Below are positions 21,995 through 49,167 of a DNA stretch of 64,000 nucleotides, piece after piece. The notes under the pieces are model-generated. The model did no database searches, was not told the origin of the DNA, and worked only from the letters and a program-made list of their open reading frames with translations. How positions within the stretch are numbered: position 1 is the first letter of the stretch; each line of letters opens with the position of its first letter. A program made the translations under genes and the position numbers. The stretch is taken from assembly GCA_043808095.1 (NCBI GenBank), contig JAZDFF010000040.1:1908-65907 (forward strand), written 5' to 3'. Source of the DNA: Candidatus Omnitrophota bacterium. GTDB taxonomy: Bacteria > Omnitrophota > Gorgyraeia > JAZDFF01.

Positions 21995-24325
21995 TTAAAA
22001 GAAACCGTGACTTATGCTAAAATGAAGTCTTCCCTGTCTTTTTGTCTCACCGGGTTCTTTATTTAAAGGATACCCGTAATCTAATCTTAGCGGACCAAGT
22101 GGCGTCTTTATCCTTAGCCCCAGGCCAACGCTTGATTTATATCCGCTCGACCCGAAGTCTTTAACCTTAGACCAGACATTACCCACATCAAAAAATGTTG
22201 CGCCTTTAATATACTCAACCAAAGGAAAAACATACTCTAAATTTCCTATAAGGAGCGCTTCGCCTCCTATGGGATCATCGGTAGCTGCATCTATCGGGCC
22301 CACCTTTCTTTCTCGGTAACCTCTAATAGTATCCGAACCACCGGCATAGAATCTTTCATAAATAGGCACCTCGTCAGAGCTTCCAAATGGCTGAGTGATG
22401 CCTGCGCGTATCTCTGATTGCAATACTGATTTTCTCGTGATAGGAATATAATTACTGAAGCTTCCGATAAATTTGGTAAAATTCTTATCGCCACCTAAAG
22501 GCCCGCCTGCTAATTCAGCTGCTCCAGATAATAACCTTCCTCTAGTCGGCTCAAAGATATTATCGCGAGTATCTCGGTCTAAACCAAACTCTGTGCTGAT
22601 GATTGTATTTTGCCCCTCTTCTTTTTTTAGGTCACTTGAGGCAGCTTCATCAATATTAGTAATCTCGATATTGTCAAATCGCCAAAATAGATGCGCCTTT
22701 AGATATTCGGATAATTCTTTGGCTAAACGCAAATCCCCGCCAGTCCGTTTTTCGTCGTAGGCATAACCTACGTCGGTGTCACGGTAATGTGATCTATTAT
22801 AAAGATCAAATCCGAAAGATAGCGGATAATCGAAAATCCAGGGCTCGGTAAAACTAAGACCGAATTCCTTACGTAAGCTTCCTAACTCGGCGCGAAGACT
22901 TAAATCCTGGCCGCCTCCGGTAAAATAAGGAAAATTTCTCCAGTCAAAGTTCTTCTGCTCAATCTGGGCAAAACCAATGAATTGATCGACGGAACTATAG
23001 CCGCCGCCAAACATAAATTCTCCGGTCTTAGATTCTTTTACCTGGACAATAAGATTCTTTTTGTTCGGTGCGCTGCCGGGCTCTGTGTCATAATTTATTT
23101 CTTCAAAGAAACCTAGGTTATTCAAACGCTCGCGGCTGCGTCTTAGTTTCTCGCCGCTAAACCGATCTGCCGGATAAATCCTTAATTCTCTTCTAATAAC
23201 CACGTCCTTGGTCTTGATATTACCTCTTATCTTAATCATATCCACATAGCCGATTTGGTTCTCAGCGATGTTATAGGTAATATTGACCCTGCCTGTTTGA
23301 GCATCTAAGGAAGTAGACTCTTTAACTTCGGCAAAGATGTAGCCCTTATCAAAGCAAAGGCTCTGGATGTTAGATACGTCCTGTGAAAGCCCATCCTGAC
23401 TAAAGACCTTCCCCGGCAGACATTCGCTTAAGTTGCTTCTGATCTCTTGTTCTTTAACAATACTGTTTCCTTCGATGCTGACCGTTCCCACTACATATTT
23501 AATTCCTTCTTTAATGTTAATAGAAACTGCGACCTTATTTTTCTTAAGTTTTTCTGTACTATATTCTACCTCAACATCCTGATAACCCCCGCGTTTATAA
23601 AATGCCCTGATCTTATCAATATCTTCTTTTAAGGTGCCTTCTTTATAGAGGCCGTTTCTTATGATGGTCAGGGGCCATATGAAAGGCCTGCGCGTCTTCA
23701 TAATACTTAGAACCTTTTTATAGCCGAATGCCGCATTGCCATTGATGGAGATTTTACTTACCATTAATTTTGTGCCTTCATCGATTAAGATGGTTACCTT
23801 AACCTTATTGGTATTTTCATCCAGGTCTGATTTTGAGTCTATGCTGACATGAGAAAAGCCTTTTCTTTGATAAAGCTTGACCAGCCCCTGGATATCATCC
23901 TTCAGCTTTGTCTGCTCTAAAAATTCATCTTTTTTTGTCTTCATTGCGCTTTTTAAGGCGTATTCGCCGATAGCGTGGCGGCCCTGGAAAATTATATTAT
24001 CCACAATCGGCAGTTCTTTAACTGTAAATATCACTTTAACGCCCTTTTCATAGTCTTGGGTATCTACCTCAATATCGCTAAAGAAGCCCAGGGAATACAG
24101 TTTTTTGATATCATCCTTGATCACCTGGTCAGAGAATGTCTGACCTAACTTTACCTTTAATTTAGACAGGATAGTAGCTGTACTGATGGTTTTATTACCA
24201 ATAATATCGATGGCGCTGACTCGCTGAGTCTTTTCTTGCACGCCAACCTGACCCTGGGCTATGACTATGGAATTTGACGCAAGATAGAAAATTCCTATTA
24301 AACTAAATATAATTATTTTCTTCAT
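21995..24325 (-). CDS. bamA: Outer-membrane protein assembly factor BamA.
   Basis: It has a signal peptide, five POTRA-like repeats and a C-terminal Omp85 barrel ending in an aromatic residue. Confidence 0.92.
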   Translation of the reverse strand: MKKIIIFSLIGIFYLASNSIVIAQGQVGVQEKTQRVSAIDIIGNKTISTATILSKLKVKLGQTFSDQVIKDDIKKLYSLGFFSDIEVDTQDYEKGVKVIFTVKELPIVDNIIFQGRHAIGEYALKSAMKTKKDEFLEQTKLKDDIQGLVKLYQRKGFSHVSIDSKSDLDENTNKVKVTILIDEGTKLMVSKISINGNAAFGYKKVLSIMKTRRPFIWPLTIIRNGLYKEGTLKEDIDKIRAFYKRGGYQDVEVEYSTEKLKKNKVAVSINIKEGIKYVVGTVSIEGNSIVKEQEIRSNLSECLPGKVFSQDGLSQDVSNIQSLCFDKGYIFAEVKESTSLDAQTGRVNITYNIAENQIGYVDMIKIRGNIKTKDVVIRRELRIYPADRFSGEKLRRSRERLNNLGFFEEINYDTEPGSAPNKKNLIVQVKESKTGEFMFGGGYSSVDQFIGFAQIEQKNFDWRNFPYFTGGGQDLSLRAELGSLRKEFGLSFTEPWIFDYPLSFGFDLYNRSHYRDTDVGYAYDEKRTGGDLRLAKELSEYLKAHLFWRFDNIEITNIDEAASSDLKKEEGQNTIISTEFGLDRDTRDNIFEPTRGRLLSGAAELAGGPLGGDKNFTKFIGSFSNYIPITRKSVLQSEIRAGITQPFGSSDEVPIYERFYAGGSDTIRGYRERKVGPIDAATDDPIGGEALLIGNLEYVFPLVEYIKGATFFDVGNVWSKVKDFGSSGYKSSVGLGLRIKTPLGPLRLDYGYPLNKEPGETKRQGRLHFSISHGFF

Positions 24326-28820: not shown

Positions 28821-29759
28821 TTAATCAAAAAGACAACTCACTGACTCTTCGTTATGAATCCTTTTTATCGCCTCGGCTAACAAGCCTGCCACTGACAAGA
28901 CCTTTATCCTGGGATGTTTTTTGGAATCTTTAAGCGGGATAGTATCGGTAATGAGTAATTGTTTTAACGGAGATTTATCGATTATGGAGAATGCATTGCC
29001 GGATAAAACCCCGTGAGAAATGGCTGCATATATCTCTTTTGCACCGGCCTTTTTCAATGCCTCAGTTGCCTCAATAAGCGAACCGCCGGTTGCTATAAGG
29101 TCATCAACAATCACTACGCGGGCACCTTTAACCTCGCCGAGTATATTCATAACCTCGGCCTTGTCGGGAGAGATCCTGCGCTTATCCACAATCGCCAGTT
29201 GTACCCCTAATCTCTTAGCATAGGCCCTGGCCATCTTTATTCCGCCTACATCCGGTGAAACTACTACAAAATCTCTTAATTTCATCTTTTGAAAGTATTC
29301 TACAAAGATATTTACCGCAAAAAGATGATCTAACGGTATATCAAAGAACCCCTGGATCTGGCCGGCATGAAGATCCATGGTCAAAACGCGGTTTGCCCCG
29401 GCTGTAGTAATCAGATTAGCCACTAATTTTGCCGTTATGGGCACGCGCGGCTGGTCCTTGCGGTCCTGCCGGGCATAACCAAAATAAGGCACGACTGCAG
29501 TAATCCTTTGGCTGGAGGCGCGCCGAAGGGCATCAATCATAATGAGAAGCTCCATAAGATTTTCATTAACCGGCGGGCAGGTCGGCTGTATAACGAATAC
29601 GTCTTTGCCGCGCGCATTTTCATTAATTTTAACCCGCACCTCTCCCTCGCTAAAACGGGTCACCATCGCATCTCTTAAAGAAACTCCTAGGCGCTGGCAG
29701 ATATCTTTGGCTAATTTTGGATGGGCGTTACCTGTAAATACTAAAAGTTTATCTTTCAT
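28821..29759 (-). CDS. prs: Ribose-phosphate pyrophosphokinase.
   Basis: It has the Prs N-terminal domain and the PRPP-binding loop (VDDLIATGGS). Confidence 0.93.
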   Translation of the reverse strand: MKDKLLVFTGNAHPKLAKDICQRLGVSLRDAMVTRFSEGEVRVKINENARGKDVFVIQPTCPPVNENLMELLIMIDALRRASSQRITAVVPYFGYARQDRKDQPRVPITAKLVANLITTAGANRVLTMDLHAGQIQGFFDIPLDHLFAVNIFVEYFQKMKLRDFVVVSPDVGGIKMARAYAKRLGVQLAIVDKRRISPDKAEVMNILGEVKGARVVIVDDLIATGGSLIEATEALKKAGAKEIYAAISHGVLSGNAFSIIDKSPLKQLLITDTIPLKDSKKHPRIKVLSVAGLLAEAIKRIHNEESVSCLFD

Positions 29760-29762
29760 TTT

Positions 29763-30518
29763 TCACCTGTTCTTTTTTATTGGCTCATCTATAACTGAGC
29801 CATGTAAATAATTTGCTTGGAGAGTATTACTTCCGTCGTATTCTGCGATGATGTCTTCGTTGTCGTAGATATAGCGGGTAATTACTCCATTGACATTCTT
29901 TTCAATCCTTCTTCCTATGCCGTCGTAGGTGTACTCTGCAAAGGTTAAGTCAGGGAAGTCAATGCGGATTAACTGATTCTCGACATCGTAAGTATAGTTG
30001 GTAGTCTCTAAGGTAGATTTGTTCTGCTTAGAAATTAGATTCCCATTGTCATCATAGGCGTAAGTATAGTTATCATCTTCCAGTAGTCTATTGGCCTCAT
30101 CATAGACATAGGTTAAAGGATTGCGGTTACCTACTGGGTCATAGGTGTAGTTTTCAGTAGGAATTGTGGGGTGCGTAGCGCCGATTAGTCGGTATAAATC
30201 ATCATAGCCATAGTCGTGCAGGCCAGTTAAATCAGTCATATCTTCCCGGTTGCCGACGTTATCATAGGTGTAGGTGTATGAATTAATAGTAACCAGATTA
30301 CTGAGCACAGAAACCTGATTATCTGTAGATTCTAGATGCAAGATACCAGATGCTAGTTTATCTCTGGTGACCTTGTGACTTGGTGACGTGGTGACCAAGG
30401 TAAGTAATCTACTTGCTAAGTCGTAAGTGTAGGCGGTTTGAGTGCGATGAATAAGATGATAAAGGTAATAGCTATTGTCTAGGAGTTTATCGGTTGAGAT
30501 ATAGTTTAGGTCTTTCAT
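29763..30518 (-). pseudogene. Orphan internal Rhs/YD-repeat fragment, a diverged duplicate of part of the large rhs gene.
   Basis: Its protein aligns block-by-block with a roughly 250-residue internal region of the 31071..36635 product (YTYDxVGNRE..DLTGLHDYGYDDLYRL..DEPI). Shared DNA stretches include TTCTAGATGCAAGATACCAGAT. Confidence 0.75.
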
Positions 30519-30551
30519 AGATTATTTCGTAATTTAATATGATTTAAGGAG

Positions 30552-31061
30552 TTATCGCGTTCTGACACTGTTTTTTCTGTTTTTTATTTTGTAAAACTTT
30601 AATATTGGCACCAAAAGAAATTTAAATAACTTCAATGCCTTAAATAATCTACTAGTTAAAAAAACTTTCTTGGTAATCTCTTTACTATATTGTTCAGCGG
30701 TCTTTTCCCAACCTTCTTTTTTATAACCATGACCTATTCTCTGAACATGATGACCTATTTCGTGAAAGAGCGTAGTTGCAAGTAATAATTTAGGAATTAT
30801 TGGAAAAATAATAAAAAAAATCCGAGGCATCTTGTAGAACATCCCAGATACATTTAGAACTATCTCTATATTTTTAGCATTTTGATATCCATAATAGAGA
30901 CCCGCAGCATCTTTAACATTTCTCTCTACAGGATAGTCAATTATTGTTATTTTATTTATTTTATACAAATCCTCTTGAGGGACAAATTTGAGTAATTCTT
31001 CAATGTTTTTTCTAAAGTTAAATTTTATACTTTTGTCTAGATTAATGATCTCAATTATCAT
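30552..31061 (-). CDS. Small HExxH-motif protein (LFHEIGHHV) immediately downstream of the rhs gene. It may be an Rhs-associated immunity or accessory protein.
   Basis: The HEIGHH motif is visible. The position relative to the Rhs C-terminal tip is the only other support. Confidence 0.45.
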   Translation of the reverse strand: MIIEIINLDKSIKFNFRKNIEELLKFVPQEDLYKINKITIIDYPVERNVKDAAGLYYGYQNAKNIEIVLNVSGMFYKMPRIFFIIFPIIPKLLLATTLFHEIGHHVQRIGHGYKKEGWEKTAEQYSKEITKKVFLTSRLFKALKLFKFLLVPILKFYKIKNRKNSVRTR

Positions 31062-31070
31062 CTCTGCTAA

Positions 31071-34000
31071 TTAAATTCCAAACACATGACTTAACCATTC
31101 AGCTATATCATCAATCAGTTTTTTCCATTTATCAGGCGGAAGTGGAGGAATAGGATTATGAGTAGCAGGTATCGTTGGTGGAATTTTGTAATATCCTGTC
31201 CTTTTACCTTTACCAGCTCCAGGATATGGTTCAGGTGAAGGGCCTTTAATAGCTTGATACAAAGCGTATCCACCAACTGCGGCAATAATAGCAACTTTCC
31301 CAAACTGTGTAGGTTCGGATAATGCCATTGTCGTACCAACAATAATCCAAGGAGGCATACACATTACGTTACCATAAGGATCGACATAAATTACAGGATT
31401 ATTTAACACATAGGGATAAAGGTTTAATGTGAGGGAATTAGTAAGAAAACCTTTAAACGAGTCTTCCTGCAAAAACCTCCCTATCCTCGCATCATAATAC
31501 CTGGCTCGATAGTAATACAAGCCTGTTTCAGAGTCGAATTCACGTCCAGTATAGGTAAACGGATTAGACAGTGTGCCGGTTTGGTTTACGATATTGCCAA
31601 AGGAATCATAGGTATACGTTCGCACTACAGCGCCGGTATTGTCTGTCAGAGCTGTTATACTGCCTAAGCCATCTACGTGATAGTAGTAAAGTTGTCCTCC
31701 CCTCTCCATCCTCAATGGCTCATCTATCCCAGGGCCGTGGAGGTATTTGGCGGTTAGGGTGTTGGTTACATCATATTCAGCAAGGATATCCTCGTTGTCG
31801 TAGACATAGCGAGTAATTACTTCATTTACATTCTTTTCGATTCTTCTGCCGAGGCCATCATAAATATAGTCAATAGTCGATGGTCCATAGTCAATAGAAA
31901 TTAACTGATTCTCGACATTGTAACCATAGGTAGTAACATCTGACGGATTGCTCTTATTGGTTTTAGTGATAAGGTTGCCGTTGTCGTCATATATATAGGT
32001 ATAAGTCCCATCGTCTACCAGTCGATTAGCGACATCGTAAACAAAACTTGCCGGATTGCGGTTACCCACTGGGTCATAGGTGTAGTCTTCAGTCGGGAAG
32101 GTCGGATGAGTTGCCTGAGTTAGTCTATATAAATCATCATAGCCATAGTCATGCAGGCCGGTTAAATCAGTCATCTCTTCCCGGTTACCGACAGAGTCGT
32201 AGGTGTAGGTGTAAGAGTCAAGAGTTGATTGTGTATCTTTAGATTCTAGATGCAAGATACCAGATACTAGTTTATTGTGTGATTTGGGATTTAAACTTGT
32301 TACCATACTTAACAGCCGGCTGGCCAAGTCGTATCCGTAGGCAGTCTGGGTATTGTTGGCTAAGATTAAGGCAGTCCTGCGAGAAAGCTGGTCATAACCA
32401 AAATGACTAATCAGTTGATCAGCGGCGGTCTTGATGTCGATGAGACGGTTTAGGTCATCATAAATATACTTGGTAACAACTGATTGAGGGTCAGTTAAAG
32501 TAAGGCGATTAGAGTTTTTATCATAGGTATAGCTGATAGTAGTGGCTGGCTGATGTCCCAAATTCGCAGTGGTTGCTTGAGTGAGTCTACCAGCTAAATC
32601 ATAATTCATTGTCAGGCCTGAATCAGGATTGGTTACTGAGGTCAGATTATTTACAGAGTCATAACCATTGGTTACATTTAGACCTGGCCCGGATTTGTTA
32701 GTCAGACGGTTTATCTGGTCATAGGTAAAGCTAATGGTTTGGCCTTTAAAGTCAATGACAGTCCCTAAGTTTCTATTTAAGTCATAGCTAAAGGTCTTGG
32801 TCTTGGTTAGAGGGTTAGCGATGGTTTTAAGCTGGTTTATTTCATCATAAGTAAAGTTTGTTTCGTGGAGTTTCGAATCAATGATTTTTTTCAGGCTCCC
32901 TGCCTCATCGTATTGATACTGGGTAGTTTTATTATCAGCATCTACTACTTTTTTCAGGCGGTTCATTGAGTCGTATTCAAAGGTAGTGGTATTGTTGTCG
33001 GCATCAGTTGAGGAAGTAATGTTACCGGCGTTATCATAGGCCAGGGTAGTGGTATGGCTTAAGGGGTCAGTAATGGTTAAGAGATTTTCTGTAACCGGGT
33101 CATAGGTAAAATTAGTCTCATTTTGAAGCGGGGTGCCAAAGCCAGAGATAATCTTAGACAGAAGCGAATAAGGACTATTATACTCCATCTTGGTAATATT
33201 GCCAAGGGCATCGGTTATCTGGATGGGATTTCCTTTTGTGTCATAATCAATATCAGTAAGATTAGATTCTGGGTCTAAGATGCTAGATACTTGATTAAAG
33301 TTCGGCTCATAGGTAAAGGTAGTGGTGGCGGAGATTGCATTCTCAGTTGAGGTCCGCAGATTACCTTTAGCATCATAAGTCATGGTTACTGTAGAGCTGT
33401 TAGGCCGGGTAATTTTTGTGGGATTATTATTTACGTCCCTTTCGATTGTGGTAGTCTGATTTAAGGCATCAATAATTTTTGCATAAGAGCCGAATTTTGA
33501 GGTCTGGGAGGTGGTTGTGTAGCCTTTGCCGTCGATAATCGTTTCTACGATATCAGCCGGCCGCACTACCGGTGCGGGATTCTGTGGTGTGCCTACACCA
33601 GGCGCTAAATCATTAATCAGGCCTTGCACTTCAGAAGGAAAAAACTGAATTATCTCCTGAGGGCTATTTGGAAAAAGCATCCGATTTACCCGGCCATAAT
33701 TATCATATTGGTATTGGGTGGTGAGATTCCGCTCATTGGTAGCGGCAGTTAAAAAATGACTATTATAGGTAAATGCCTTGGTAGTAGTGTCTGGATTAGT
33801 TATTCCGGATAGGTCGCCACTGGCATCAATGTTAAACTGAGTAATTCTACCTGCAGGGTCTTTTATGGATTGGAGCTTGCCTGATGTATTATAGATAAAT
33901 TCATATTTGCCGCCAGCAGGTAAAATAATCTCACTTATCTCTTCGGCTCTTCCGTCAGAATTGGCATCTATATAAATATATTGCGTAGTGTTGCCATTTC

Positions 34001-36635
34001 GGTCAACCATAGAAGTTTCTAAACCTAGGGCATCAAAATTAATCTTGGTTGCGTCTTTCATTTTACGCACGGAAGTGCCGTCACTATTTAATACAAAGGT
34101 AGAATAATCACCTAAGGCAGTGGTAAAAACATCTTCGGTGGCAATATCTATACCATGTGGTCCGGCACCAACACTAATCCTTGTCAGGATTGAAAAATTA
34201 TCAATATCAATCACTGCTACGCGGCTTGCGTTTCCTTCAGTAACATAGGCGTATTTAGCGTCTGGGCTAAAGGCTAAGCCTATTGGACGCATAATATCCG
34301 GGATGGTTGCGATTACTTCATTGTTTATAGTATCTATAACAGAAACATTATTTGATGAAAAATTGGTTACTAAAACATATTTGTTATCCGGGCTAACTCC
34401 GGCGCTGAGCGGCTGTGAGCCCACGGCAATTGTTTTAATGACCTGCTGTGAAACCAAATCAATCACACTAACAGTATTGCTGGAATTATTCGGCACATAT
34501 AAGAACCTATCGTCATTTGTAATATCAATGACATTGGGATTATTGCCGGTATTTAAAGTGGCGATGACTTCCTTAGTCTGAGTATCAATTACTGAGACTG
34601 TATTACTGTTACGATTTGACACATAGAGCCTGCTTCCGTCGTGGCTATACACAGCGCCGCAGGGTCCGCTTCCCACGTTGATTGTCTGGGTAGGTTCAAA
34701 AGTAACCCCGTCAAGCAAACCCACCTTACCTGAGGCAAGGTCAGATACACATATCTCACCTGTGATAGGACTACTATTAATCCAGCAACTTTGCGATACA
34801 TTGGCATTAATAACTTTTTCTACCTTTTTGGTAGCCGTGTTAATTAAAGAGACATAGGGAGAATATACATGATTAATAAGCGCGTATTTACCGTCAGAAG
34901 TGACGCAAACTCCGTGAGGCGTTCCGCTGATAGGAATGGTGCTAATTACTTCATTCTCCTGGTAATCAATTACAGAGGAATTTCTGCTGGTCCAATTCCC
35001 GGTAAATGCTAGGGGTTGGGGATGTTGACGAATAATTATGGCTGAACCATCGCCCTCGGTCAGAAGAATTGCGCCATCCGGGGAGAAATGTAGGCGCTGT
35101 AAACCCTCTATGCTCCAGCCTGCACCAAAAGGAGAATCTTGCTGGCTGTTAATGGTAAGATACCCATTGACATTGCGTGTCATAGGCACTGGTTCAATAG
35201 TGAGCACGCCGGTATTAGCAATAGGTGCTCCCCCAAAATTAGCGGTGGTCCAATAAGTTGCATTCGTATAATCATTGGAGGCCTCTATGGTGTAAGGATA
35301 ACTTCCCGAGGTAAGTAGTTGGCCCAAAGCATCTTTTCCATCAAAAAGATAGGCGTATCTTACTTTGCCGCTTACTCCCTGATAGGTTGCCTGCGCTTGT
35401 CTACCAGCAATATCAACTTTAAAAGTAGTAGTGGCCGGAATATTGGTAGTAACCGGGTCTAAATCTGTCTCGATAGAGATAAAATTTGAAGGCTGAGCAG
35501 TCAAGGAAGTATAGACAAGTTTTAAGTCATAAGGCCTGCCTAATCGTTTGACTTGCGGCAGGGAATGTTCAAGAGTTAAACTGCCGGATTTAACGCCTAC
35601 ACCAGGGTCTTTTGCCTGCTGGGGTTGAATTTGCGCATCCTGGGTATTGTTTGCAGTCATATTTGATTTTCTATCCTGTGGCGGAGGTACTGCAGGTAGA
35701 TTCAAATCCCAGGGAGAAAAATGATTTATCTGGTATTCTAACCAAAGGCCATCTGCTGAGATATAACCCATAAGACCTGTGTCTTGCCATTGCCCGGTCT
35801 CTTCATTAAAGATACCCGCAGGGATAGGTATGCCGGCAGCAAAGCCGAGGGTATTGGCAACTCTCATAGTTACGGGCTGATTAAAGGTTGCGCCATCTGG
35901 TTGTAAGTCAACTGCATAGGTAAAGAAGGTAGTAGAAGGCAGTTCATCAGGAAGCGCCTGGGATTTTTCGTATTTGGTTGAGACCACATTGATCGGTTCA
36001 GTTACCGCACCTTCTGGAAAGATTAGTTGAATCTGACCTGTAGAGTTAATGTGCGTTCCACCGGAAGGAGTAATCTGAGTAACAACGGAGTCTTGAGGAG
36101 TTAAATATACAGGATTAACTGCAGAATGACGGCCAGTAACTACTTTTACTTGTCGTTGGCAACTGGTAAAGGAGGTTTTTTCAATCTTTATACTTGTAGT
36201 AAATTCATTAGAGCTAGGTGAGAGCTTTTCGATAGTTATAGAGAATCTTCCCTGGCTATCAGAGTAGGCCTGTTCGACCTGGTCAGGGGAGGTAATCAGG
36301 GCATCTTGTAGGGGAAGTTCGGTTGAGGCATCATAGACTATCCCATCCACAAAACCCCTCTTATAATAAGGCCGGCAAGGAGAGGGACCGTTTTTAAAGA
36401 GATAATTTATTAGATACACTACGTCCCCAACATCTACTTTGCCGTCTATATTAACATCGCCAGATTCTAATGGCGCAGGAGCAGGACCATTCTTAAAGAG
36501 ATAATTTACCAGATAGACTACGTCCCCAACATCTACCTTACCATCAGCGTTAGCATCACCGCAGACCCAGGCCCAGGATGGTTGAGCAACTAACAAAATT
36601 AACGCTATCCCCAAAAATAAGATACGCCTTTTCAT
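31071..36635 (-). CDS. Rhs/YD-repeat polymorphic-toxin-family protein (1854 aa).
   Basis: Domain order: signal peptide, two dockerin-like Ca-binding repeats (GDANADGKVDVGDVVYL x2), a carboxypeptidase-regulatory-like domain, tandem YVTN beta-propeller repeats, about 50 YD repeats, and an Rhs-core end (..YVDPYGN) followed by a roughly 100-aa hydrophobic C-terminal tip. Confidence 0.85.
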   Translation of the reverse strand: MKRRILFLGIALILLVAQPSWAWVCGDANADGKVDVGDVVYLVNYLFKNGPAPAPLESGDVNIDGKVDVGDVVYLINYLFKNGPSPCRPYYKRGFVDGIVYDASTELPLQDALITSPDQVEQAYSDSQGRFSITIEKLSPSSNEFTTSIKIEKTSFTSCQRQVKVVTGRHSAVNPVYLTPQDSVVTQITPSGGTHINSTGQIQLIFPEGAVTEPINVVSTKYEKSQALPDELPSTTFFTYAVDLQPDGATFNQPVTMRVANTLGFAAGIPIPAGIFNEETGQWQDTGLMGYISADGLWLEYQINHFSPWDLNLPAVPPPQDRKSNMTANNTQDAQIQPQQAKDPGVGVKSGSLTLEHSLPQVKRLGRPYDLKLVYTSLTAQPSNFISIETDLDPVTTNIPATTTFKVDIAGRQAQATYQGVSGKVRYAYLFDGKDALGQLLTSGSYPYTIEASNDYTNATYWTTANFGGAPIANTGVLTIEPVPMTRNVNGYLTINSQQDSPFGAGWSIEGLQRLHFSPDGAILLTEGDGSAIIIRQHPQPLAFTGNWTSRNSSVIDYQENEVISTIPISGTPHGVCVTSDGKYALINHVYSPYVSLINTATKKVEKVINANVSQSCWINSSPITGEICVSDLASGKVGLLDGVTFEPTQTINVGSGPCGAVYSHDGSRLYVSNRNSNTVSVIDTQTKEVIATLNTGNNPNVIDITNDDRFLYVPNNSSNTVSVIDLVSQQVIKTIAVGSQPLSAGVSPDNKYVLVTNFSSNNVSVIDTINNEVIATIPDIMRPIGLAFSPDAKYAYVTEGNASRVAVIDIDNFSILTRISVGAGPHGIDIATEDVFTTALGDYSTFVLNSDGTSVRKMKDATKINFDALGLETSMVDRNGNTTQYIYIDANSDGRAEEISEIILPAGGKYEFIYNTSGKLQSIKDPAGRITQFNIDASGDLSGITNPDTTTKAFTYNSHFLTAATNERNLTTQYQYDNYGRVNRMLFPNSPQEIIQFFPSEVQGLINDLAPGVGTPQNPAPVVRPADIVETIIDGKGYTTTSQTSKFGSYAKIIDALNQTTTIERDVNNNPTKITRPNSSTVTMTYDAKGNLRTSTENAISATTTFTYEPNFNQVSSILDPESNLTDIDYDTKGNPIQITDALGNITKMEYNSPYSLLSKIISGFGTPLQNETNFTYDPVTENLLTITDPLSHTTTLAYDNAGNITSSTDADNNTTTFEYDSMNRLKKVVDADNKTTQYQYDEAGSLKKIIDSKLHETNFTYDEINQLKTIANPLTKTKTFSYDLNRNLGTVIDFKGQTISFTYDQINRLTNKSGPGLNVTNGYDSVNNLTSVTNPDSGLTMNYDLAGRLTQATTANLGHQPATTISYTYDKNSNRLTLTDPQSVVTKYIYDDLNRLIDIKTAADQLISHFGYDQLSRRTALILANNTQTAYGYDLASRLLSMVTSLNPKSHNKLVSGILHLESKDTQSTLDSYTYTYDSVGNREEMTDLTGLHDYGYDDLYRLTQATHPTFPTEDYTYDPVGNRNPASFVYDVANRLVDDGTYTYIYDDNGNLITKTNKSNPSDVTTYGYNVENQLISIDYGPSTIDYIYDGLGRRIEKNVNEVITRYVYDNEDILAEYDVTNTLTAKYLHGPGIDEPLRMERGGQLYYYHVDGLGSITALTDNTGAVVRTYTYDSFGNIVNQTGTLSNPFTYTGREFDSETGLYYYRARYYDARIGRFLQEDSFKGFLTNSLTLNLYPYVLNNPVIYVDPYGNVMCMPPWIIVGTTMALSEPTQFGKVAIIAAVGGYALYQAIKGPSPEPYPGAGKGKRTGYYKIPPTIPATHNPIPPLPPDKWKKLIDDIAEWLSHVFGI

Positions 36636-36643
36636 TGATTAAC

Positions 36644-38029
36644 TTACCTTTTTGATTTTAATCTTTTGCTGGTTAGCCGGGAAATCTTTTTCTTTAAGAC
36701 CCTTGCCGGAACGCCTACTACAACCGAATAATCTTTAACATTACAACCGGCAGTCACTACGCTTCCTGCTCCGGTTACTGCTTTTTTCCCGACTTTTACC
36801 GGTGCAACTAAAACCGTATCCGAGCCGATAAAAGCGCCTTTTCCGATTTTAGTTACATTTTTCTTACGGCCGTCGTAATTTGCGGTAACAGTGCCTGCCC
36901 CGATGTTAACACTATCTCCTACCTTGGCGTCGCCAAGATAGCTGAAATGCCTTACCTTAGTAAACCTGCCGACTCGCGTGCGGTTCAGTTCCGTAAAATT
37001 TCCGATTGAGGCATCATCTTCTAAGACCGTGCCCGGCCGGAGATGGCTAAAAGGCCCGACGGAACAACGGCGACCGATAACTACATCGTGCTCTATAAAG
37101 GTATAGGGATAAATTACAGAATTCCCGCCAATCTTCACATTCGGATAAATATATGTATTATTGGGGTCTAAGATGTTTACGCCTTTTTCTATAAACCCAA
37201 CCAAAATTCTGCGGCGGATTATATCAGAGGCCTTGTTTAAATCTTCTCTCGTATTAACACCTTGGGCCTGGGTATCGTCTTCTATCCTTAACGCCTGGAT
37301 GTGATAACCCTGACTGTCAAGGCACTCGATTATATCCGTAAGATAATATTCCTTTTTCTGCTCGTTAAGTTTAATATGGCCCAGATTGGAAAATAAGACG
37401 TCCTTCTTAAAGCAGTATACGCCTGTGTTTATCTCGTTTATGCGTTTTTGTTCCGGCGAAGCGTCTTTCTCTTCGACGATCTTTTTGACATCATTATTTT
37501 TGTCTCTGATAATCCTACCGTAACCGGCAGGGTCACCAACCAAGGCAGTCAATAACGTGCAAGCGGCTCTGGTATTAGAGTGGACTTCAATAAGCGAAAA
37601 TAAAGTTTCTTTCCTTATCAGAGGATGGTCTCCGTAGAAGATTAGCACATCCGAAGCATCCTTCTTAAAAAGTCCGGCCGTCGCTTTTATAGCATCAGCT
37701 GTACCTAAAAGCCTCCTCTGAAGGCAAAGCCTTATATCTTTTTTCTTTTGATAATTTTTAATAAATACTTTAACTAAATCTTTTTTATAACCGATAACAA
37801 GAATAATCCTTTTTAATTTGCGGGTGGCGCTTAACAGGTCCAGGATATAGCCTAACATAGGCTTGCCAAAAATAGGCTGAAGGACCTTCGGGATTCCGGA
37901 TTTAAGTCTTGTGCTTTTGCCTGCTGCTAAAACAATTGCATCTAGATCTTGCATTTTAAAAACCTGATACCTAAGAGTTGATTTGTATATTTTAAAAAGT
38001 TGCCCGGTCTGGACTCTTAATGAGACCAC
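36644..38029 (-). CDS. glmU: Bifunctional GlcNAc-1-P uridyltransferase / GlcN-1-P acetyltransferase GlmU.
   Basis: It has an N-terminal nucleotidyltransferase domain (LAAGKSTRLKSGIPKVL) and a C-terminal hexapeptide acetyltransferase domain. The true start is probably the internal MQDLDAIV (about 37954), because the annotated N-terminus overlaps the family-A UTR repeat. Confidence 0.88.
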   Translation of the reverse strand: MVSLRVQTGQLFKIYKSTLRYQVFKMQDLDAIVLAAGKSTRLKSGIPKVLQPIFGKPMLGYILDLLSATRKLKRIILVIGYKKDLVKVFIKNYQKKKDIRLCLQRRLLGTADAIKATAGLFKKDASDVLIFYGDHPLIRKETLFSLIEVHSNTRAACTLLTALVGDPAGYGRIIRDKNNDVKKIVEEKDASPEQKRINEINTGVYCFKKDVLFSNLGHIKLNEQKKEYYLTDIIECLDSQGYHIQALRIEDDTQAQGVNTREDLNKASDIIRRRILVGFIEKGVNILDPNNTYIYPNVKIGGNSVIYPYTFIEHDVVIGRRCSVGPFSHLRPGTVLEDDASIGNFTELNRTRVGRFTKVRHFSYLGDAKVGDSVNIGAGTVTANYDGRKKNVTKIGKGAFIGSDTVLVAPVKVGKKAVTGAGSVVTAGCNVKDYSVVVGVPARVLKKKISRLTSKRLKSKR

Positions 38030-38141
38030 AACTTACGGAGCGTTAACGAACGTAAGTTGTCTGGTCGAATTAATCCCGAGTCCGCCATTGATTCAGTGGC
38101 GGACGAGGGAGAACCAGAACATTTATTTATGGTAAATTTAG

Positions 38142-38213
38142 TTGCCCGGTCTGGACTCGAACCAGAAAAGCGAGACCCAAATTCTCGTGTGTTACCAATT
38201 ACACTACCGGGCA
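38142..38213 (-). tRNA. tRNA-Gln(UUG).
   Basis: Reverse complement: TGCCCGG TA GTGT AATTGGTA ACAC A CGAGA ATTTGGG TCTCG CTTT TCTGG TTCGAGT CCAGA CCGGGCA A. The U1:A72 pair is typical of bacterial tRNA-Gln. Confidence 0.82.
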
Positions 38214-38225
38214 ATAATTTATATA

Positions 38226-38645
38226 TTAATAGCCCGGCTCTCCTAGGTCTTGCGAAGAAGAGACGCTAACTTTAGACTTATCTTTTTCATAGGCCTCCAG
38301 AACCTTTTTCTGCAAGACTTCTCTGAAGGTCTGAGTAATGGGATGGCAGATATCTTTATGCTCTGACTGCGCTGTCTGATTATCGCTTGAAACTGGCCTT
38401 GGGATTACAGGAAGCTGAGCTGCGCACTGGTTACAGAATTTGCTATGCAGTTCATTGCGGAACCCGCATTTAGGGCAAGGCGTCTTTAATCTCCTTGACG
38501 GCATAGCAATAAAAAGACCGCTGTTTCCCTGAATTACCTTGATGTTTCTTACCACAAAGGCGTTATCGAAAGTCACAGTTGCATAAGCTTTTAGTTTTTT
38601 ATCCGGACTTTCCTTCAAAAAAATCCTAACCTCAGTTATCTCCAT
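38226..38645 (-). CDS. spoVG: SpoVG-family protein with a C-terminal zinc-ribbon extension.
   Basis: It has the SpoVG N-terminal block MEITEVRI..KAYATVTFDNAFVVRNIKVIQGNSGLFIAMPS, followed by a CPKCG..CNQC ribbon. Confidence 0.85.
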   Translation of the reverse strand: MEITEVRIFLKESPDKKLKAYATVTFDNAFVVRNIKVIQGNSGLFIAMPSRRLKTPCPKCGFRNELHSKFCNQCAAQLPVIPRPVSSDNQTAQSEHKDICHPITQTFREVLQKKVLEAYEKDKSKVSVSSSQDLGEPGY

Positions 38646-38755: not shown

Positions 38756-39706
38756 CTACCTAGTCTTTACCACATACGTCTGCCAATCCTTCTTCTGGTT
38801 AAGTACTGCTTGGTACTTCTCGGCCTCCTTTCTTGACTTCAGTATGGCATAAACTGCTGCGCCGCTTCCTGACATGCAGGCGGTATTTATGCCTAAATTT
38901 CGCAAATAATCCTTAATTTGGCCAACTTCAGGGAATTTTTCTAACGTTTCCGTCTCCAGGCTGTTATGGATATACCTAGGAAGGCCGCTAAAGTCTCTAT
39001 CCTTTAAGACACGGACTAGCATTTTAACATCTTTATTGCTATCTGTCAATCCTTCGGTTTTGTCCGGGATGGATTTGAAGTTTAGACCCTGGTAAATGGA
39101 TTTAGTGGAAACCGAAACCGAAGGAACCACCAGGAGATGCCAAAACCTACCTATGCCTCTTAAAGGCTTTATTTCATCTCCCCGGCCCCTTCCCAGGCCA
39201 AACCTATAGCCTAAGACAAAAAAAGCCACATCTGAGCCTAATATTCGTGCGTATTTTAAAAGCTGTTTTCTGCTTAATCTTAAACCCAAAAGCTGATTTA
39301 GGCCTAATAATGTGGCTGCGGCATTACTCGAGCCCCCTGCCAGGCCGCTACCTACGGGTATATTTTTCTTTATCTGGATATCAACGCCGGCTTTGAGACT
39401 AAAATCTTTCTTTAAGATTTCCGCTGCCTGAAAGGCCAGGTTTCTTGCACCTTGCGGCACAGCCTTATCAAGGCAACTGACCCGGATAAGCCCTGAAGAA
39501 TTTAGTTTAAGGCCGACCTCGTCGCAAAGGTCAATTCTTTCAAAGACGGTTTCAATATCATGAAATCCGTCTGCCCTTTTAGCTAATACATTCAGGTAAA
39601 GGTTTAATTTGGCGCAAGATGCGAGGACCAATTTCTTCATAAACGCTAAATCGCCTGCCTGACGGTGAAGCAGGCAGGGCATTTGGCGGTTTTGCGGTAT
39701 AGCCAA
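38756..39706 (-). CDS. ispE: 4-diphosphocytidyl-2C-methyl-D-erythritol kinase.
   Basis: It has the GHMP kinase motif PVGSGLAGGSSNAAA. The neighbourhood is the conserved ispE-spoVG-glmU-prs-ctc-pth arrangement. Confidence 0.88.
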   Translation of the reverse strand: MAIPQNRQMPCLLHRQAGDLAFMKKLVLASCAKLNLYLNVLAKRADGFHDIETVFERIDLCDEVGLKLNSSGLIRVSCLDKAVPQGARNLAFQAAEILKKDFSLKAGVDIQIKKNIPVGSGLAGGSSNAAATLLGLNQLLGLRLSRKQLLKYARILGSDVAFFVLGYRFGLGRGRGDEIKPLRGIGRFWHLLVVPSVSVSTKSIYQGLNFKSIPDKTEGLTDSNKDVKMLVRVLKDRDFSGLPRYIHNSLETETLEKFPEVGQIKDYLRNLGINTACMSGSGAAVYAILKSRKEAEKYQAVLNQKKDWQTYVVKTR

Positions 39707-45603: not shown

Positions 45604-48600
45604 CTAACACTTAGAGAAACCACAGCCATGGCATTTGATACAGCCTTCTTCATGACGTAATGCTCCGCCGCAATCAGGGCAAACACCGACGATGTTTCCC
45701 CGATGGGCGCTGTGAACAAGATGCTCTTCGGATTTAAGCAGAGATTCGATTTCTTGGTTTACCTCTGATTCTTTTTGCTTATTATTAAGTAGCCTTTTTT
45801 CGATTACCCTGGCCATAGCATCGGCACAGGAAAAAATCCTCACACCCTTTTCCCAGGAAGGCGAAGGACACCTAATACCATGCAATTGGTCAATTATAGA
45901 CTTTACTTCAATCTCAGAGCGCAGCGCCAAAGAAACGAGCCTGCCTATAGCCTCAAGTTGGCTAGCTGCACATCCTCCGGCCTTACCCATCTGGGTAAAG
46001 ATCTCAAAAGGCCTACCTTCTTCGTCGCTATTTATGGTTACATAAAGATTACCGCAGCCTGTCGGCACCTTTGTAGTTGTTCCGTTAATTACCTCGGGGC
46101 GCGGCCGGGGCGTAATCTTATCAATCTCTGTCTTTTGTTCTTTACGGCCGATGTTTAGGACTTGTTCATCCCTGCTTCTGTCTCGGTAAATAGTCGCACC
46201 TTTACAACCGAGTTTATAGGCACTCATGTAAACCTGGCGCACGTCTTCAACAGTAGCATTTTCCGGGAAGTTCACGGTTTTACTGACTGCATTATCAGTA
46301 TACCTCTGGAATACTGCCTGCATCCTGATATGCCACTCGGGTGCAATATCATGGGCAGTGACAAAAACCCGCCTGATATCTTCAGGTATTTCTTTTAAAT
46401 CTTTGATTGAGCCTTTCTCGGCAACCTTAGACATCAATTCCCGGGAATAAAACCCTCTTTCCTTGGCTACCTCTTCAAATACTGGGTCTACCTCAACAAG
46501 TTTATCATTATCCATCACATTGCGATAATAAGAGACGGCAAATATCGGCTCAATACCCGAGGAGCACGGACCGGCAATAATACTTATTGTTCCGGTAGGG
46601 GCAATTGTGGTAAGAGTAGCATTTCTGAGTCTTAGGCTTTTTTTCTTATCATACATGCTACCAAGAAATGCCGGGAAAACCCCTCTTTCCTTGGCAAGCC
46701 GTATAGACTCTTCTCTTGCCTCTTTAAGGATAAAAGACATTATTGCATTACCGAGTCTTAAGGCCTCATCAGAATCATAAGGAATACCCAATTTTAAAAG
46801 AAGGCTACCCCAGCCCATTACACCAAGTCCGATTTTACGGGTAAGCTTGGTGTTCTCTTCAATTATCGGCACAGGGAATTTATTGATGTCGATGACGTTA
46901 TCCAAGAAATGCACAGCTCCATGAGTTATGTTTTTAAGTCTGGGCCAATCGACGCTAAGTCTGCCATTTTTCTCTTTGACCATTAAGGCAAGGTTAATTG
47001 AGCCCAGATTACAGGATTCATAAGGCAAAAGTACTTGCTCTCCGCAAGGATTAGTCGACTCGTACTTGCCTAATTCCGGTGTGGGGTTAAATTCATTCAT
47101 CCGGTCGATAAAAATTATACCAGGTTCGCCATTTTTATGCGCCTGTTTAACAATCAAATCAAAGACCTCTTTAGCATTCAATTGTTTCAAGGCCTTGGCT
47201 GTATGCGGATCAATTAAATCGTAGTTTTCTGCCTTAGCCACTTTATTCATAAATTCCTTGGTAATGGCAACCGAGATGTTAAAATTAGTGATATCACGAT
47301 TGGATTCTTTGCAGGTTATAAACTCCAAAATATCAGGATGATCCACCCGCAATATCCCCATATTGGCGCCACGTCTGGTGCCGCCCTGTTTTACCGCCTG
47401 AGTGGCTGAGTCGAAAACCTTCATAAAAGAAACCGGTCCCGAGGCAATCCCTCCGGTAGATTGTACGACGCTATTTTTTGGCCTAAGACGAGAAAAGGAA
47501 AAACCAGTGCCTCCTCCACTTTTGTGGATCAATGCAGTAGCTTTGAGTGATTCAAAAATGCTATCCATGGAATCATCGATGGGCAGGACGAAACAATTAT
47601 GAACGGAAACGAAATTCGCAGAATAGGAATGATCTTCTTCAACTTCTAAATTATAGACCTTGCCCTGATAAGACTGTTTTTCAATATAGTCAACAGGACT
47701 AAATAATATTCCCTCCCTCTCGATACTACGGATAAATTCAAAACCATTATGCGGTATTTCTGTTTCTAATAATTCGGCTACAATCTGAGAACCATATCTG
47801 CCCGAAACCTGACATTTCACTGGTCTAACCCGACCCAGACGAGGCATCGAATCAAAATTTAAAGCAGCAAAGGACCCCAAGCGCATCAACATCTGCCAAG
47901 CAGCATAAACCGCATTTGTATTACACATTACTAATTTTGTAGAAAAATTATTCCCATTCTTAAAGACACAACTGTCGCCTCTAAATAATCCGGCAAGAAA
48001 TCCTTTTTGCTTTTTGGCAGGTAAAAGAATAAACCATGGCGGTATAGATTTAGAAGCATAGCCTGTGTTAAATAATTTCAAAAAGAATTCAGCCAATATC
48101 TTAGAGTGAAATCTTAAAGAGATCCATCGACGTTGGGGAGAATCTGTAGTCTCAATTCTAGATGTTATCCCAAATTTATTTTTAACTATGCGCATAACGT
48201 CTTGTGCATATGATTCTTCTTCATTTGAGAAAGTAAATCTTAAAACCTCATTTTCACTAACACAACCCTCAGAAAAATAATATCCAAATAGTCTCATCAA
48301 AGATACATCTAATACTATTTCATTTCTTACGGGATGCACTTGTCTGGATATTTCTCCACTACGATTTCTATTTTGGGTATAAATAGTGCCGTCTTTCCTA
48401 ACATAATACCTAATATCTGCATTTCTTTGATAAAGAACCCCTTCTATTTCAATAAAATCGCTGTTATCAAGATAATCGGAGATTTTAATCGTCTCTCTAT
48501 CCATAGTTTCTTGGGGATAATTTAAAGCCACGTAGTCACCGACGCGCAGATCCGCAGCTTTTAACCAACGAATACTGCTCCCCTGTTTCCTCATAGCTAA

Positions 48601-49167
48601 TACCGGATGTTCACCCGTAACTTTCAAAGTCTGGGTAGGTAATTTGTATATTCCGATTATATACAACAAATCACTAGTCCGCTCAAATTTTTCCAAGACC
48701 CTTTTGAATCTATTTCTATGAGTTAAAATCTCATCTCCAATATTTATATCACTAATGGCCCGGGGGCCATCTTTAGTAATTATTAATTGGTCAGGATGAA
48801 AACACGCCGATAACTGACCGAGTTCTCTTCCCGCATTCATTAAGGTAGGAGAATTGGGCATGAATTCCAAAGAGGCCAATAACCCATAAAACTTCTCTTC
48901 TAATTTTCTTATCTGAGTGCCATTTTTACCATAGGCCCTGTCGGCAGAAGATATGGATTTGGCAATACGCCGAAACATCTGGTCGGGAGATTCAATCACC
49001 TTACCACTTGGGTCCTTTTTAAGATACCTTCTTTCCAGCACCGTTTTGGCATTTAGAGATAAGAACGGTTCCATATCAGGCTCCTTTAATGAACCCCGAC
49101 GTATCGTCGGGACAAATTTTCCCGCTTCAAATCTGTAAAACATAAAGCGGGATCCCGCCACCGTCAA
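45604..49167 (-). CDS. nrdJ: Class II (adenosylcobalamin-dependent) ribonucleotide reductase NrdJ interrupted by a 403-aa intein.
   Basis: The NrdJ blocks NPCGEQ..CNLGSINL and the C-terminal zinc ribbon are present. The intein is inserted at the conserved ..GQLSA|C..HN|CFVLP site. The true start is probably the internal MEPFLSL (about 49074). Confidence 0.9.
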   Translation of the reverse strand: MTVAGSRFMFYRFEAGKFVPTIRRGSLKEPDMEPFLSLNAKTVLERRYLKKDPSGKVIESPDQMFRRIAKSISSADRAYGKNGTQIRKLEEKFYGLLASLEFMPNSPTLMNAGRELGQLSACFHPDQLIITKDGPRAISDINIGDEILTHRNRFKRVLEKFERTSDLLYIIGIYKLPTQTLKVTGEHPVLAMRKQGSSIRWLKAADLRVGDYVALNYPQETMDRETIKISDYLDNSDFIEIEGVLYQRNADIRYYVRKDGTIYTQNRNRSGEISRQVHPVRNEIVLDVSLMRLFGYYFSEGCVSENEVLRFTFSNEEESYAQDVMRIVKNKFGITSRIETTDSPQRRWISLRFHSKILAEFFLKLFNTGYASKSIPPWFILLPAKKQKGFLAGLFRGDSCVFKNGNNFSTKLVMCNTNAVYAAWQMLMRLGSFAALNFDSMPRLGRVRPVKCQVSGRYGSQIVAELLETEIPHNGFEFIRSIEREGILFSPVDYIEKQSYQGKVYNLEVEEDHSYSANFVSVHNCFVLPIDDSMDSIFESLKATALIHKSGGGTGFSFSRLRPKNSVVQSTGGIASGPVSFMKVFDSATQAVKQGGTRRGANMGILRVDHPDILEFITCKESNRDITNFNISVAITKEFMNKVAKAENYDLIDPHTAKALKQLNAKEVFDLIVKQAHKNGEPGIIFIDRMNEFNPTPELGKYESTNPCGEQVLLPYESCNLGSINLALMVKEKNGRLSVDWPRLKNITHGAVHFLDNVIDINKFPVPIIEENTKLTRKIGLGVMGWGSLLLKLGIPYDSDEALRLGNAIMSFILKEAREESIRLAKERGVFPAFLGSMYDKKKSLRLRNATLTTIAPTGTISIIAGPCSSGIEPIFAVSYYRNVMDNDKLVEVDPVFEEVAKERGFYSRELMSKVAEKGSIKDLKEIPEDIRRVFVTAHDIAPEWHIRMQAVFQRYTDNAVSKTVNFPENATVEDVRQVYMSAYKLGCKGATIYRDRSRDEQVLNIGRKEQKTEIDKITPRPRPEVINGTTTKVPTGCGNLYVTINSDEEGRPFEIFTQMGKAGGCAASQLEAIGRLVSLALRSEIEVKSIIDQLHGIRCPSPSWEKGVRIFSCADAMARVIEKRLLNNKQKESEVNQEIESLLKSEEHLVHSAHRGNIVGVCPDCGGALRHEEGCIKCHGCGFSKC
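47596..48804 (-). mobile_element. Intein within NrdJ with an embedded double-motif LAGLIDADG homing-endonuclease domain.
   Basis: The intein begins with Cys after GQLSA and ends VHN, followed by extein Cys (CFVLP). The internal LAGLIDADG motifs are LFGYYFSEG and FLAGLFRGDS. Confidence 0.85.

Follow-up and report, generated by a model that had tools for sequence, protein, structure and literature searches.

A dockerin-bearing Rhs/YD locus with a candidate new tip and immunity pair between glmU and prs in Candidatus Omnitrophota

The window analyzed here, a stretch of 64,000 nucleotides (nt) from a Candidatus Omnitrophota bacterium (contig JAZDFF010000040.1), contains a 6.9-kb block (29763-36635, minus strand) that lies between glmU and prs and consists of three open reading frames (ORFs). 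These encode an Rhs/YD-repeat protein of 1854 amino acids (aa) (31071..36635, minus strand; RHS_repeat, E 1.3e-65; YD_repeat_2x, TIGR01643, E 4e-51), a protein of 169 aa with an HExxH motif, located in the immunity-gene position (30552..31061, minus strand) and identified as minimal zincin-like from its ORF, its profile family and a structural model, and a 251-aa fragment of an Rhs core (29763..30518, minus strand). We assign a probability of about 0.68 to the interpretation of the block as an inserted Rhs/YD polymorphic-toxin locus with a new pair of a C-terminal tip and its immunity protein. The most notable content of the locus is an uncatalogued but widespread cassette of tip and zincin, together with the dockerin-ZU5 front end of the Rhs protein, an emphasis that differs from that of the original prediction, which had been made from the sequence alone.

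The rhs block within the glmU-prs operon

The gene order on both sides of the block is conserved, and all the genes concerned are encoded on the minus strand. On the glmU side lie ispE (38756-39706), spoVG (38226-38645) and tRNA-Gln(ttg) (38141-38213), the latter between spoVG and glmU; glmU itself (36644..38029; TIGR01173, E 2.9e-134) forms the upstream boundary of the insertion, and prs (28821..29759; NF002320, E 6.6e-141), followed by rplY and pth, the downstream one. The ORFs and their neighbors are those of the original prediction, which had described a wedge in the conserved order ispE-spoVG-tRNA-Gln-glmU ... prs-rplY-pth. The genes are closely packed: the junction sequence places the rhs ATG 8 nt past the glmU stop codon, 9 nt separate the rhs stop codon from the zincin ORF and 33 nt the zincin ORF from the fragment ORF, and the fragment stop codon, only 3 nt ahead of the prs ATG, overlaps the prs ribosome-binding site. 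A scan for promoter and terminator consensus sequences produced matches at the level of chance (37 against 30±5 expected and 9 against 12±4, respectively) and is mute on separate transcription; together with the tight spacing, this result suggests that the block is probably transcribed by read-through from the glmU-prs operon. An NCBI entry from a Candidatus Omnitrophota metagenome-assembled genome (MAG) matches the 169-aa protein at 100% identity, and exact look-ups of the window proteins and of P0001 returned no record.

In five of the five relatives compared (L007, L008, L009, L011 and L036), prs-rplY-pth begins 20-85 nt past glmU, with no Rhs gene between glmU and prs, and in L007 and L008 ispE-spoVG are also found upstream of glmU. 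These five are the closest genomes found via GlmU (42-53% identical), and two of them, L008 and L036, carry the label of Omnitrophota MAGs. Two other Omnitrophota MAGs have homologous Rhs genes elsewhere, namely, after a class II aminoacyl-tRNA synthetase gene (L122) and after a HIT-family gene (L121). Because glmU abuts prs in the five relatives and the homologous Rhs genes occupy other sites, the glmU-prs adjacency is the ancestral arrangement and the Rhs block is a lineage-specific insertion into a spacer of roughly 30 nt, which agrees with the earlier claim that the block was inserted rather than ancestral. The GC content is 0.32-0.35 over the tip and the zincin gene, compared with 0.42-0.44 in the flanks, and the GC skew is inverted across the block. 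Mis-assembly was considered as the source of the insertion and rejected, as it would require two chimeric junctions in one operon and the repeats involved are merely 72-76% identical.

The two other Omnitrophota loci share some features of placement with the window. In L122, the Rhs gene (194-2156) overlaps the end of the class II aminoacyl-tRNA synthetase gene (1-209) by 16 nt in the same orientation, and in L121 (9510-11070) the Rhs gene begins about 150 nt past the HIT-family gene, again in the same orientation. At these two loci and in the window, the Omnitrophota Rhs genes look as if they had a habit of riding on housekeeping operons.

Architecture of the Rhs protein

The N-terminus of the Rhs protein, the domains of which are given below with minus-strand coordinates, starts with a Sec-type signal peptide (aa 1-22, 36570..36635; MKRRILFLGIALILLVAQPSWA followed by W) that was read from the sequence, reaches a Kyte-Doolittle peak of 1.94 at aa 5-23 and has no lipobox. 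It is followed by a type I dockerin (aa 26-79, 36399..36560; PF00404, 38-41 bits against a cut-off of 22.9), the two Ca-binding repeats of which, DANADGKVDVGD and DVNIDGKVDVGD, contain the pattern DxNxDGxxDxxD twice and also form an 84-nt direct repeat with 81% identity (family D5). Next come a carboxypeptidase-regulatory/transthyretin (TTR)-like domain (aa 96-174, 36114..36350), for which the profile matches are sub-threshold (PF13715, 22 bits, and PF13620, 16 bits, with cut-offs of about 32) but which is conserved in the homologues P0155 and P0156, and a ZU5-type autopeptidase domain (aa 187-310, 35706..36077; PF00791, 28.6-30.9 bits against a cut-off of 21). The original prediction had correctly recognized the signal peptide and the dockerin, had called the carboxypeptidase-regulatory domain that remains below threshold (22 against 32 bits), and had missed ZU5.

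The ZU5 model match spans aa 187-260, and the domain is closed by an HFS motif (aa 305-307, nt 35715-35723) within INHFSPWD (aa 303-310). The surrounding stretch, HFSPWDLNLPAVPPP, is conserved in P0155, the closest homologue (63% identity). HFS, which we take from PIDD and Nup98 to be the ZU5-type self-cleavage motif, is the predicted self-cleavage site of this domain. A second HFS (aa 516-518, 35082-35090, minus strand), in LQRLHFSPDG within a DUF6531-like region, is probably not a cleavage motif because it is replaced by HYS in P0155. For RHS toxins that bear beta-propellers as well, ZU5 has been described as the processing autopeptidase at the N-terminus (PMC3482391).

The closest Rhs homologues, P0155 and P0156, correspond to the window protein in full from the TTR-like domain onward and carry another module in place of the dockerin; the 118 further matches listed for the N-terminal 560 aa have a coverage of 8-16% and are nearly all matches of the Dockerin Pfam family in diverse secreted enzymes. 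Given this replacement and the diversity of the other dockerin proteins, the dockerin appears to be an exchangeable anchor, a promiscuous module in these phyla that is located upstream of the predicted self-cleavage site. The dockerin of the original prediction is thus confirmed, and its anchoring to a cohesin scaffold is weaker than had been proposed, the Cohesin family having no match in the ten other large window ORFs scanned and the dockerin being promiscuous. Two metagenomic proteins, P0157 and P0158, combine a dockerin 64-67% identical to that of the window with a cohesin domain on the same protein, and cohesin-dockerin scaffolds do exist in related communities. The window also encodes a BamA/Omp85 protein with five POTRA domains (21995-24325, minus strand), from which it follows that the organism is a diderm.

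The remainder of the protein has the composition expected of an Rhs protein, the YD/RHS repeats and the Rhs-associated core both scoring far above chance. A YVTN/YncE-type beta-propeller (aa ~555-835, 34131..34973; TIGR02276, E 2e-44, four repeats; PF21783, E 9e-25) precedes the YD-repeat shell (aa ~870-1675, 31611..34028; PF05593, E 1.3e-65, in eight stretches; NF041261 RHS_core, partial), which is followed by the Rhs-associated core with the aspartyl-protease plug (aa 1676-1756, 31368..31610; TIGR03696, E 4.9e-22, matching aa 1676-1755). The core ends in PVIYVDPYGN, with YVDPYGN at aa 1750-1756. In characterized Rhs proteins, the boundary follows the rule PxxxxDPxGL, and of the two DPxGx aspartyl-protease motifs the second contains the catalytic aspartate (PMC8636562). 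The boundary in the window fits this rule with N replacing L, and the second motif (VDPYGN) is intact. A comparison of core and tip identities gave no position for a recombination breakpoint, the last 150-250 aa being similarly conserved in all Rhs cores. The profile matches bear out the propeller and the RHS core ending in YVDPYGN, as well as the general claim of a locus of the Rhs/YD polymorphic-toxin type with an N-terminal dockerin.

The C-terminal tip and the zincin encoded next to it

The C-terminal tip comprises the last 98 aa of the Rhs protein (aa 1757-1854, 31074..31367, minus strand) and is delimited by the sequence of the core boundary and by related tips on other Rhs proteins. Its recognizable parts are a hydrophobic insertion rich in Gly and Ala, the motif GPSPEPYPGAGKGK, a stretch rich in proline and, at its end, an amphipathic helix (KWKKLIDDIAEWLSHVFGI). 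The tip returned nothing when searched against the word index, contig-end partial proteins apparently not being indexed, and its family emerged instead from the neighbors of zincin homologues. The related tips are 90-120 aa long and proline-rich (12-25% Pro in all but one). Their aligned core comprises a short hydrophobic strand, the motif G(R/K)GP..(Y/F)PG, basic residues, (R/Y)Y.xP, a proline-rich run and a terminal helix with the consensus W..(F/L)L.D.A(D/E)(L/W)L, with the highest conservation in the YPG motif, the proline-rich run and the terminal helix. Profile searches against Pfam and the sequences of the PDB gave chance-level matches alone, in accord with the atypical tip of about 100 aa without a known toxin domain that had been predicted. 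The tips form a previously undescribed and probably non-enzymatic family of about 90-120 aa.

The 169-aa protein has no signal peptide and matches no family at cut-off in Pfam, NCBIfam or PADLOC (the best score, 17.5 bits, was obtained for DUF3920, with a cut-off of 27.3). A HMMER scan of 1.84 billion representatives yielded 241 relatives, the majority of which stand alone as proteins of 150-190 aa, and across 134 members conservation of at least 90% is seen at P28, Y56, H100, E101, G103, H104, H105, E119 and A122. The HExxH motif is HEIGH (aa 100-104), with E119 downstream, and HE[IV]GH is present in 18 of the 18 Rhs-linked members. The AlphaFold2 model (predicted local distance difference test, pLDDT, 94.9; predicted template-modelling score, pTM, 0.85) contains four strands, the HExxH helix (88-109), the E119 helix (115-136) and a long hydrophobic/basic C-terminal helix. 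The best Foldseek match was anthrax lethal factor (E 0.014), accompanied by YbeY (probability 0.99, template-modelling (TM) score 0.55/0.60), TTHA0227 and stromelysin, and a weak profile match to 3e11 was also found. The arrangement of a beta-sheet, an HExxH helix and a glutamate helix is shared with Zincin_1/DUF1025 (TTHA0227, 2ejq; 3e11), YbeY and the lethal factor core, although no sequence relationship to these minimal zincins is significant and YbeY is an RNase with an H..H..H site rather than HExxH…E. The model and the conserved residues support the assignment of the protein as a minimal zincin of the gluzincin type, and it looks like an active metallopeptidase.

The linkage of the zincin to the tip recurs across genomes. 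Three homologues (P0002, P0003 and P0004) are 64-72% identical to the window protein, and for these and P0006 (38% identical) at least one locus each has the zincin gene 4-10 nt past the C-terminus of an Rhs protein with a DPxG motif and a related tip. A scan of metagenomes for zincin-type loci, conducted with a 15-sequence subset of the 134-sequence zincin alignment, added 80 loci. Among the close loci with enough upstream DNA to be scored, 26 of 31 have a tip or Rhs protein encoded directly upstream of the zincin gene, and L042 adds one more by eye; among the distant loci, the count is 1 of 43. The cassette is found on unrelated Rhs architectures, including a teneurin-like protein of 2452 aa (L045) and a DUF6531-RHS protein (L070), and either forms the main C-terminus or stands as an orphan copy in an Rhs array, beside other cassettes of a C-terminal domain and its immunity gene. 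The pairwise identities of tips and zincins are correlated (r = 0.80; 0 of 2000 Mantel permutations reaching this value). PADLOC produced no matches at the locus, and no description of the tip-zincin cassette was found in a literature search. Tip and zincin form a recurrent, uncatalogued cassette that is found in many environmental bacteria, and the swapping of the variable C-terminal domain among cores, its deviant GC content and its orphan copies constitute the behavior of a polymorphic-toxin module. The linkage at 26 of 31 close loci ties the HExxH ORF to the tip, as opposed to an unrelated peptidase.

Several individual loci deserve mention. On the P0003 contigs L002 and L005 there is a 5'-truncated tip only, joined to unrelated sequence; these truncated tips are either orphan copies or assembly variants. 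About 100 nt downstream of the cassette, both L001 (747-1742) and L002 (868-1863) contain an IS30-like transposase gene (HTH_38 + rve). Read-through of the stop codon to produce an Rhs-zincin fusion was considered and discarded: the two window ORFs share a reading frame, but of the 23 scored pairs only 5 do. The zincin profile also matched P0109, a protein of 1115 aa, in 19 stretches without HExxH, and this protein looks repetitive, as though assembled from the family's helical C-terminal portion.

The downstream Rhs fragment resembles aa 1425-1645 of the Rhs protein (67% aa identity, E 1e-94; 72-76% nt identity). The duplicate noted in the original prediction is real; it is 251 aa long and, rather than decayed, is an intact ORF truncated at both ends that stops at …HGSVIDEPIKKNR, ahead of the Rhs-associated core, and so includes neither that core nor a tip or partner gene. 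Elsewhere, a common pattern is a main rhs gene followed by orphan units of an rhs fragment, a tip and a small gene (L044, L041 and L057), and the array in L044 bears three different tips. The most fitting interpretation of the fragment in the window is that it is what remains of the 5' part of an orphan cassette of this kind, the 3' part of which was deleted up to the prs ribosome-binding site. The internal repeat arms formed by the rhs gene and the fragment have a direct orientation. Recombination between two such arms, one of which lacks a tip, would delete the tip and the HExxH gene; the recombinational tip switching that had been suggested is not supported, since the fragment offers no alternative tip. 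In L044 (156-8890), a main Rhs protein of 1523 aa with a Gly-rich tip is followed by two small membrane ORFs, then by an orphan rhs fragment with a type-B tip and a zincin, and then by a second orphan tip that is glycine-zipper-like (SQIVGGVIAIGGTGALIGF…) and a membrane ORF of 126 aa.

Two further observations concern other genes of the window. SpoVG contains an insert resembling a zinc ribbon (aa 57-79; Zn_Ribbon_1/DZR below threshold), which L007 and L008, relatives of the Omnitrophota type, also have and the Clostridium homologue L012 lacks. A ribonucleotide reductase of 1187 aa (45604-49167, minus strand) is split by an intein (aa ~122-524; Intein_splicing, LAGLIDADG_3 and Hint_2) with a LAGLIDADG homing endonuclease.

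Proposed function and relation to known systems

If the locus is a polymorphic-toxin system with a new tip/immunity pair, its operation can be outlined as follows. The Rhs protein would be exported via the Sec signal peptide and anchored by the dockerin module; ZU5 would then cut within HFS, between F and S (aa 306/307), parting the anchor from the toxin cage as separate chains. By homology to characterized Rhs proteins, the YD shell would enclose the tip, which would be released at the PVIYVDPYGN aspartyl-protease boundary. The tip would be toxic, and the cytoplasmic zincin would shield the producing cell and kin cells: it would seize the extended tip in its substrate cleft and most probably cut it. 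The immunity role of the zincin is suggested by its position and by its co-variation with the tip, and proteolysis of the tip by the conservation of the active site: the presence of conserved catalytic residues in the immunity slot suggests binding of the tip in the protease cleft and perhaps its cleavage. In a more specific form, which we advance tentatively and consider possible rather than probable, the zincin would be a protease-type immunity protein that cleaves a non-enzymatic proline-rich tip, whose (R/Y)Y-x-P-P-R/T and YPG motifs would bind an intracellular target in the manner of proline-rich antimicrobial peptides.

A number of points weigh against the interpretation of the block as an inserted toxin locus with an immunity pair. 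An outer membrane is present, as judged from BamA, and the Sec signal alone fails to account for the arrival of the Rhs protein at the surface. In the window protein, as in L006, the first of the two DPxG motifs has degenerated (EDSFKGF). The tip lacks a recognizable fold or catalytic motif, and the Foldseek matches of the zincin are weak (best E 0.014, TM 0.4-0.6), with none close. The zincin family has members outside Rhs loci, 42 of the 43 distant loci having unrelated neighbors, and the synteny comparison relies on distant relatives, with GlmU 42-53% identical. An enzyme is hardly ever found as the immunity protein of a polymorphic toxin, the usual type being a non-enzymatic binder (PMC3482391), which makes the conserved catalytic site in this slot unusual. 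Finally, toxicity of the tip, protection by the zincin and cleavage are deduced from sequence.

The conserved active site could also be explained if the zincin were a trans-acting peptidase for the processing or maturation of the Rhs tip, comparable to the releasing peptidases (PVC-metallopeptidase, HINT and caspase-like) that form part of other polymorphic toxins. The HExxH…E site is strictly conserved, HEIGHHVQ…E119, with Q107 near-invariant in A5, matches the signature HExxHxxQ-E of the PVC-metallopeptidase releasing domain (PMC3482391), and an enzyme with its substrate would account for the strict genetic linkage to the tip just as a toxin-immunity pair would. We nevertheless regard this explanation as unlikely. 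The zincin, without a signal peptide, and the Sec-exported Rhs protein, with its tip expected inside the shell, would rarely meet in the producer, and the Rhs protein already has an aspartyl-protease boundary of its own (VDPYGN). Unlike the PVC-metallopeptidase releasing domain, the zincin stands alone and is not N-terminal to a toxin, and DUF4157 is not among the best 25 of the 49 Pfam families of the 134 zincin members. In L044-type arrays, moreover, the zincin fills the slot that is taken after other tips by small membrane proteins, which are typical immunity candidates.

The original prediction had inferred a transmembrane helix in the tip and a possible membrane-disrupting activity. In such a scheme, the tip would be a membrane-inserting, pore-forming or depolarizing toxin acting through its hydrophobic helix, with the HExxH protein as a membrane-associated immunity factor. 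Short membrane-active tips with glycine-zipper-like motifs are known among Rhs and LXG proteins, the window-type tips have a Gly/Ala-rich hydrophobic segment (VAIIAAVGGYALYQAI), and the stretch of the zincin before HExxH is very hydrophobic (Kyte-Doolittle 2.2), with a C-terminal helix that is hydrophobic and basic. The segment is, however, only marginally hydrophobic: its maximal Kyte-Doolittle mean over 19 residues is 1.38, compared with the usual threshold of 1.6, which no tip reaches. It sits in an insertion of about 40 aa that is confined to the window-like subtype (maxima of 0.92-1.38), whereas the 14 type-B tips without the insertion (maxima of at most 1.14, mostly below 0.75) are still paired with the same zincin family, and tip conservation is strongest outside it, in the YPG motif, the proline-rich run and the helix at the end. 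The Tox-WTIP pore-formers are defined by two membrane-spanning helices and the motifs RxxR and Wx[ST]IP (PMC3482391), and no such signature is visible in the window tip. Most related tips have no hydrophobic segment. A membrane-active tip is not supported and is improbable.

That the locus is no toxin system at all, the Rhs protein being a surface adhesin or cage with a non-toxic tail and the zincin a co-transcribed housekeeping peptidase, would suit a tip without an enzymatic fold or known toxin motif, the housekeeping contexts of some zincin relatives and the many large dockerin-bearing surface proteins that Omnitrophota deploy for attachment (bioRxiv 10.1101/2023.11.21.568195), but is very unlikely given that the tip-zincin cassette behaves as a mobile unit on unrelated Rhs cores, occurs as an orphan in arrays and co-varies, which is the defining behavior of polymorphic-toxin modules, and that its low GC content argues for exchange. 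The zincin fold does serve some other cellular role too, as follows from the unrelated neighbors at distant loci and from P0007 (35% identical; L123, 10001-10492), which stands alone with no Rhs or tip in a membrane-lipid cluster that includes Lnt, lipid A acyltransferase, CDP-diglyceride synthase and PlsC-like acyltransferases. In L101 (2644-3983), a distant member directly follows a SUKH/SMI1-KNR4 immunity-type gene, a hint that some solo zincins sit in immunity-gene islands.

Among known systems, the toxin-immunity pair WapA-WapI of Bacillus subtilis offers a close parallel: WapA is a Sec-dependent surface YD toxin with a signal peptide, an anchor module and a DPxG-bounded toxin domain, the immunity gene is adjacent and downstream, and the WapA tips are tRNases neutralized by immunity proteins of the binding type. 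The window shares with it the signal peptide, the N-terminal surface anchor, the YD repeats, the DPxG boundary and the adjacent downstream gene, and differs in its proline-rich tip, which has no nuclease fold, and in the diderm envelope of the organism (BamA). A further resemblance is seen with the ZU5/beta-propeller/RHS toxins (PMC3482391), which combine an N-terminal ZU5, a propeller, a YD/RHS shell, a variable C-terminal domain, a small downstream gene and orphan cassettes but have SpvB where the window protein has dockerin as the N-terminal module; the C-terminal domain of the window belongs to none of the approximately 150 toxin families listed in that work, and its zincin-fold partner to no known Imm family. 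The Rhs effectors of type VI secretion (T6SS), such as Rhs1 of Photorhabdus (PMC8636562), have the YD shell, the aspartyl-protease plug, the PxxxxDPxG(L) boundary and the deviant C-terminal GC content in common with the window protein, which lacks a PAAR, VgrG or Eag-type N-terminus, having Sec, dockerin and ZU5 modules instead, and the first DPxG motif of which is degenerate.

With regard to the partner gene, immunity by putative metalloproteases has a precedent outside Rhs loci. Abi/CPBP putative membrane metalloproteases give self-immunity to peptide bacteriocins; in these systems, as proposed for the window, a putative metalloprotease is encoded as the immunity factor beside a small non-enzymatic peptide toxin. 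The Abi/CPBP proteins are polytopic membrane proteins with EExxxR/FxxxH motifs, whereas the window encodes a soluble minimal zincin with HExxH…E, and the delivery differs. Among polymorphic toxins, the Imm-ARG/ADP-ribosylglycohydrolase type likewise has a protein with a conserved catalytic site in the immunity position (PMC3482391). By analogy, such a site suggests neutralization by chemistry and not by binding alone, although Imm-ARG reverses the modification of the target and the chemistry proposed for the window is proteolysis of the toxin itself. The 2012 census of these systems contains one enzymatic immunity family only (PMC3482391).

Polymorphic-toxin loci rank among the chief sources of novel antibacterial activities, protein-protein pairs and enzyme-substrate pairs. 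If the zincin does cleave the toxin, the cassette would represent a new immunity principle and a compact protease-substrate pair; it would be the first polymorphic-toxin system with immunity by destruction of the toxin and, if the tip acts by binding through its motifs, the first in which the Rhs payload is a linear-motif peptide instead of a folded enzyme or a pore-former. The block is also a clear example of a weapon locus carried within an essential operon, that of glmU-prs. To the Omnitrophota, a phylum whose members are suspected to live as predators or parasites, the locus adds a predicted Rhs weapon that is anchored by a dockerin and released by ZU5.

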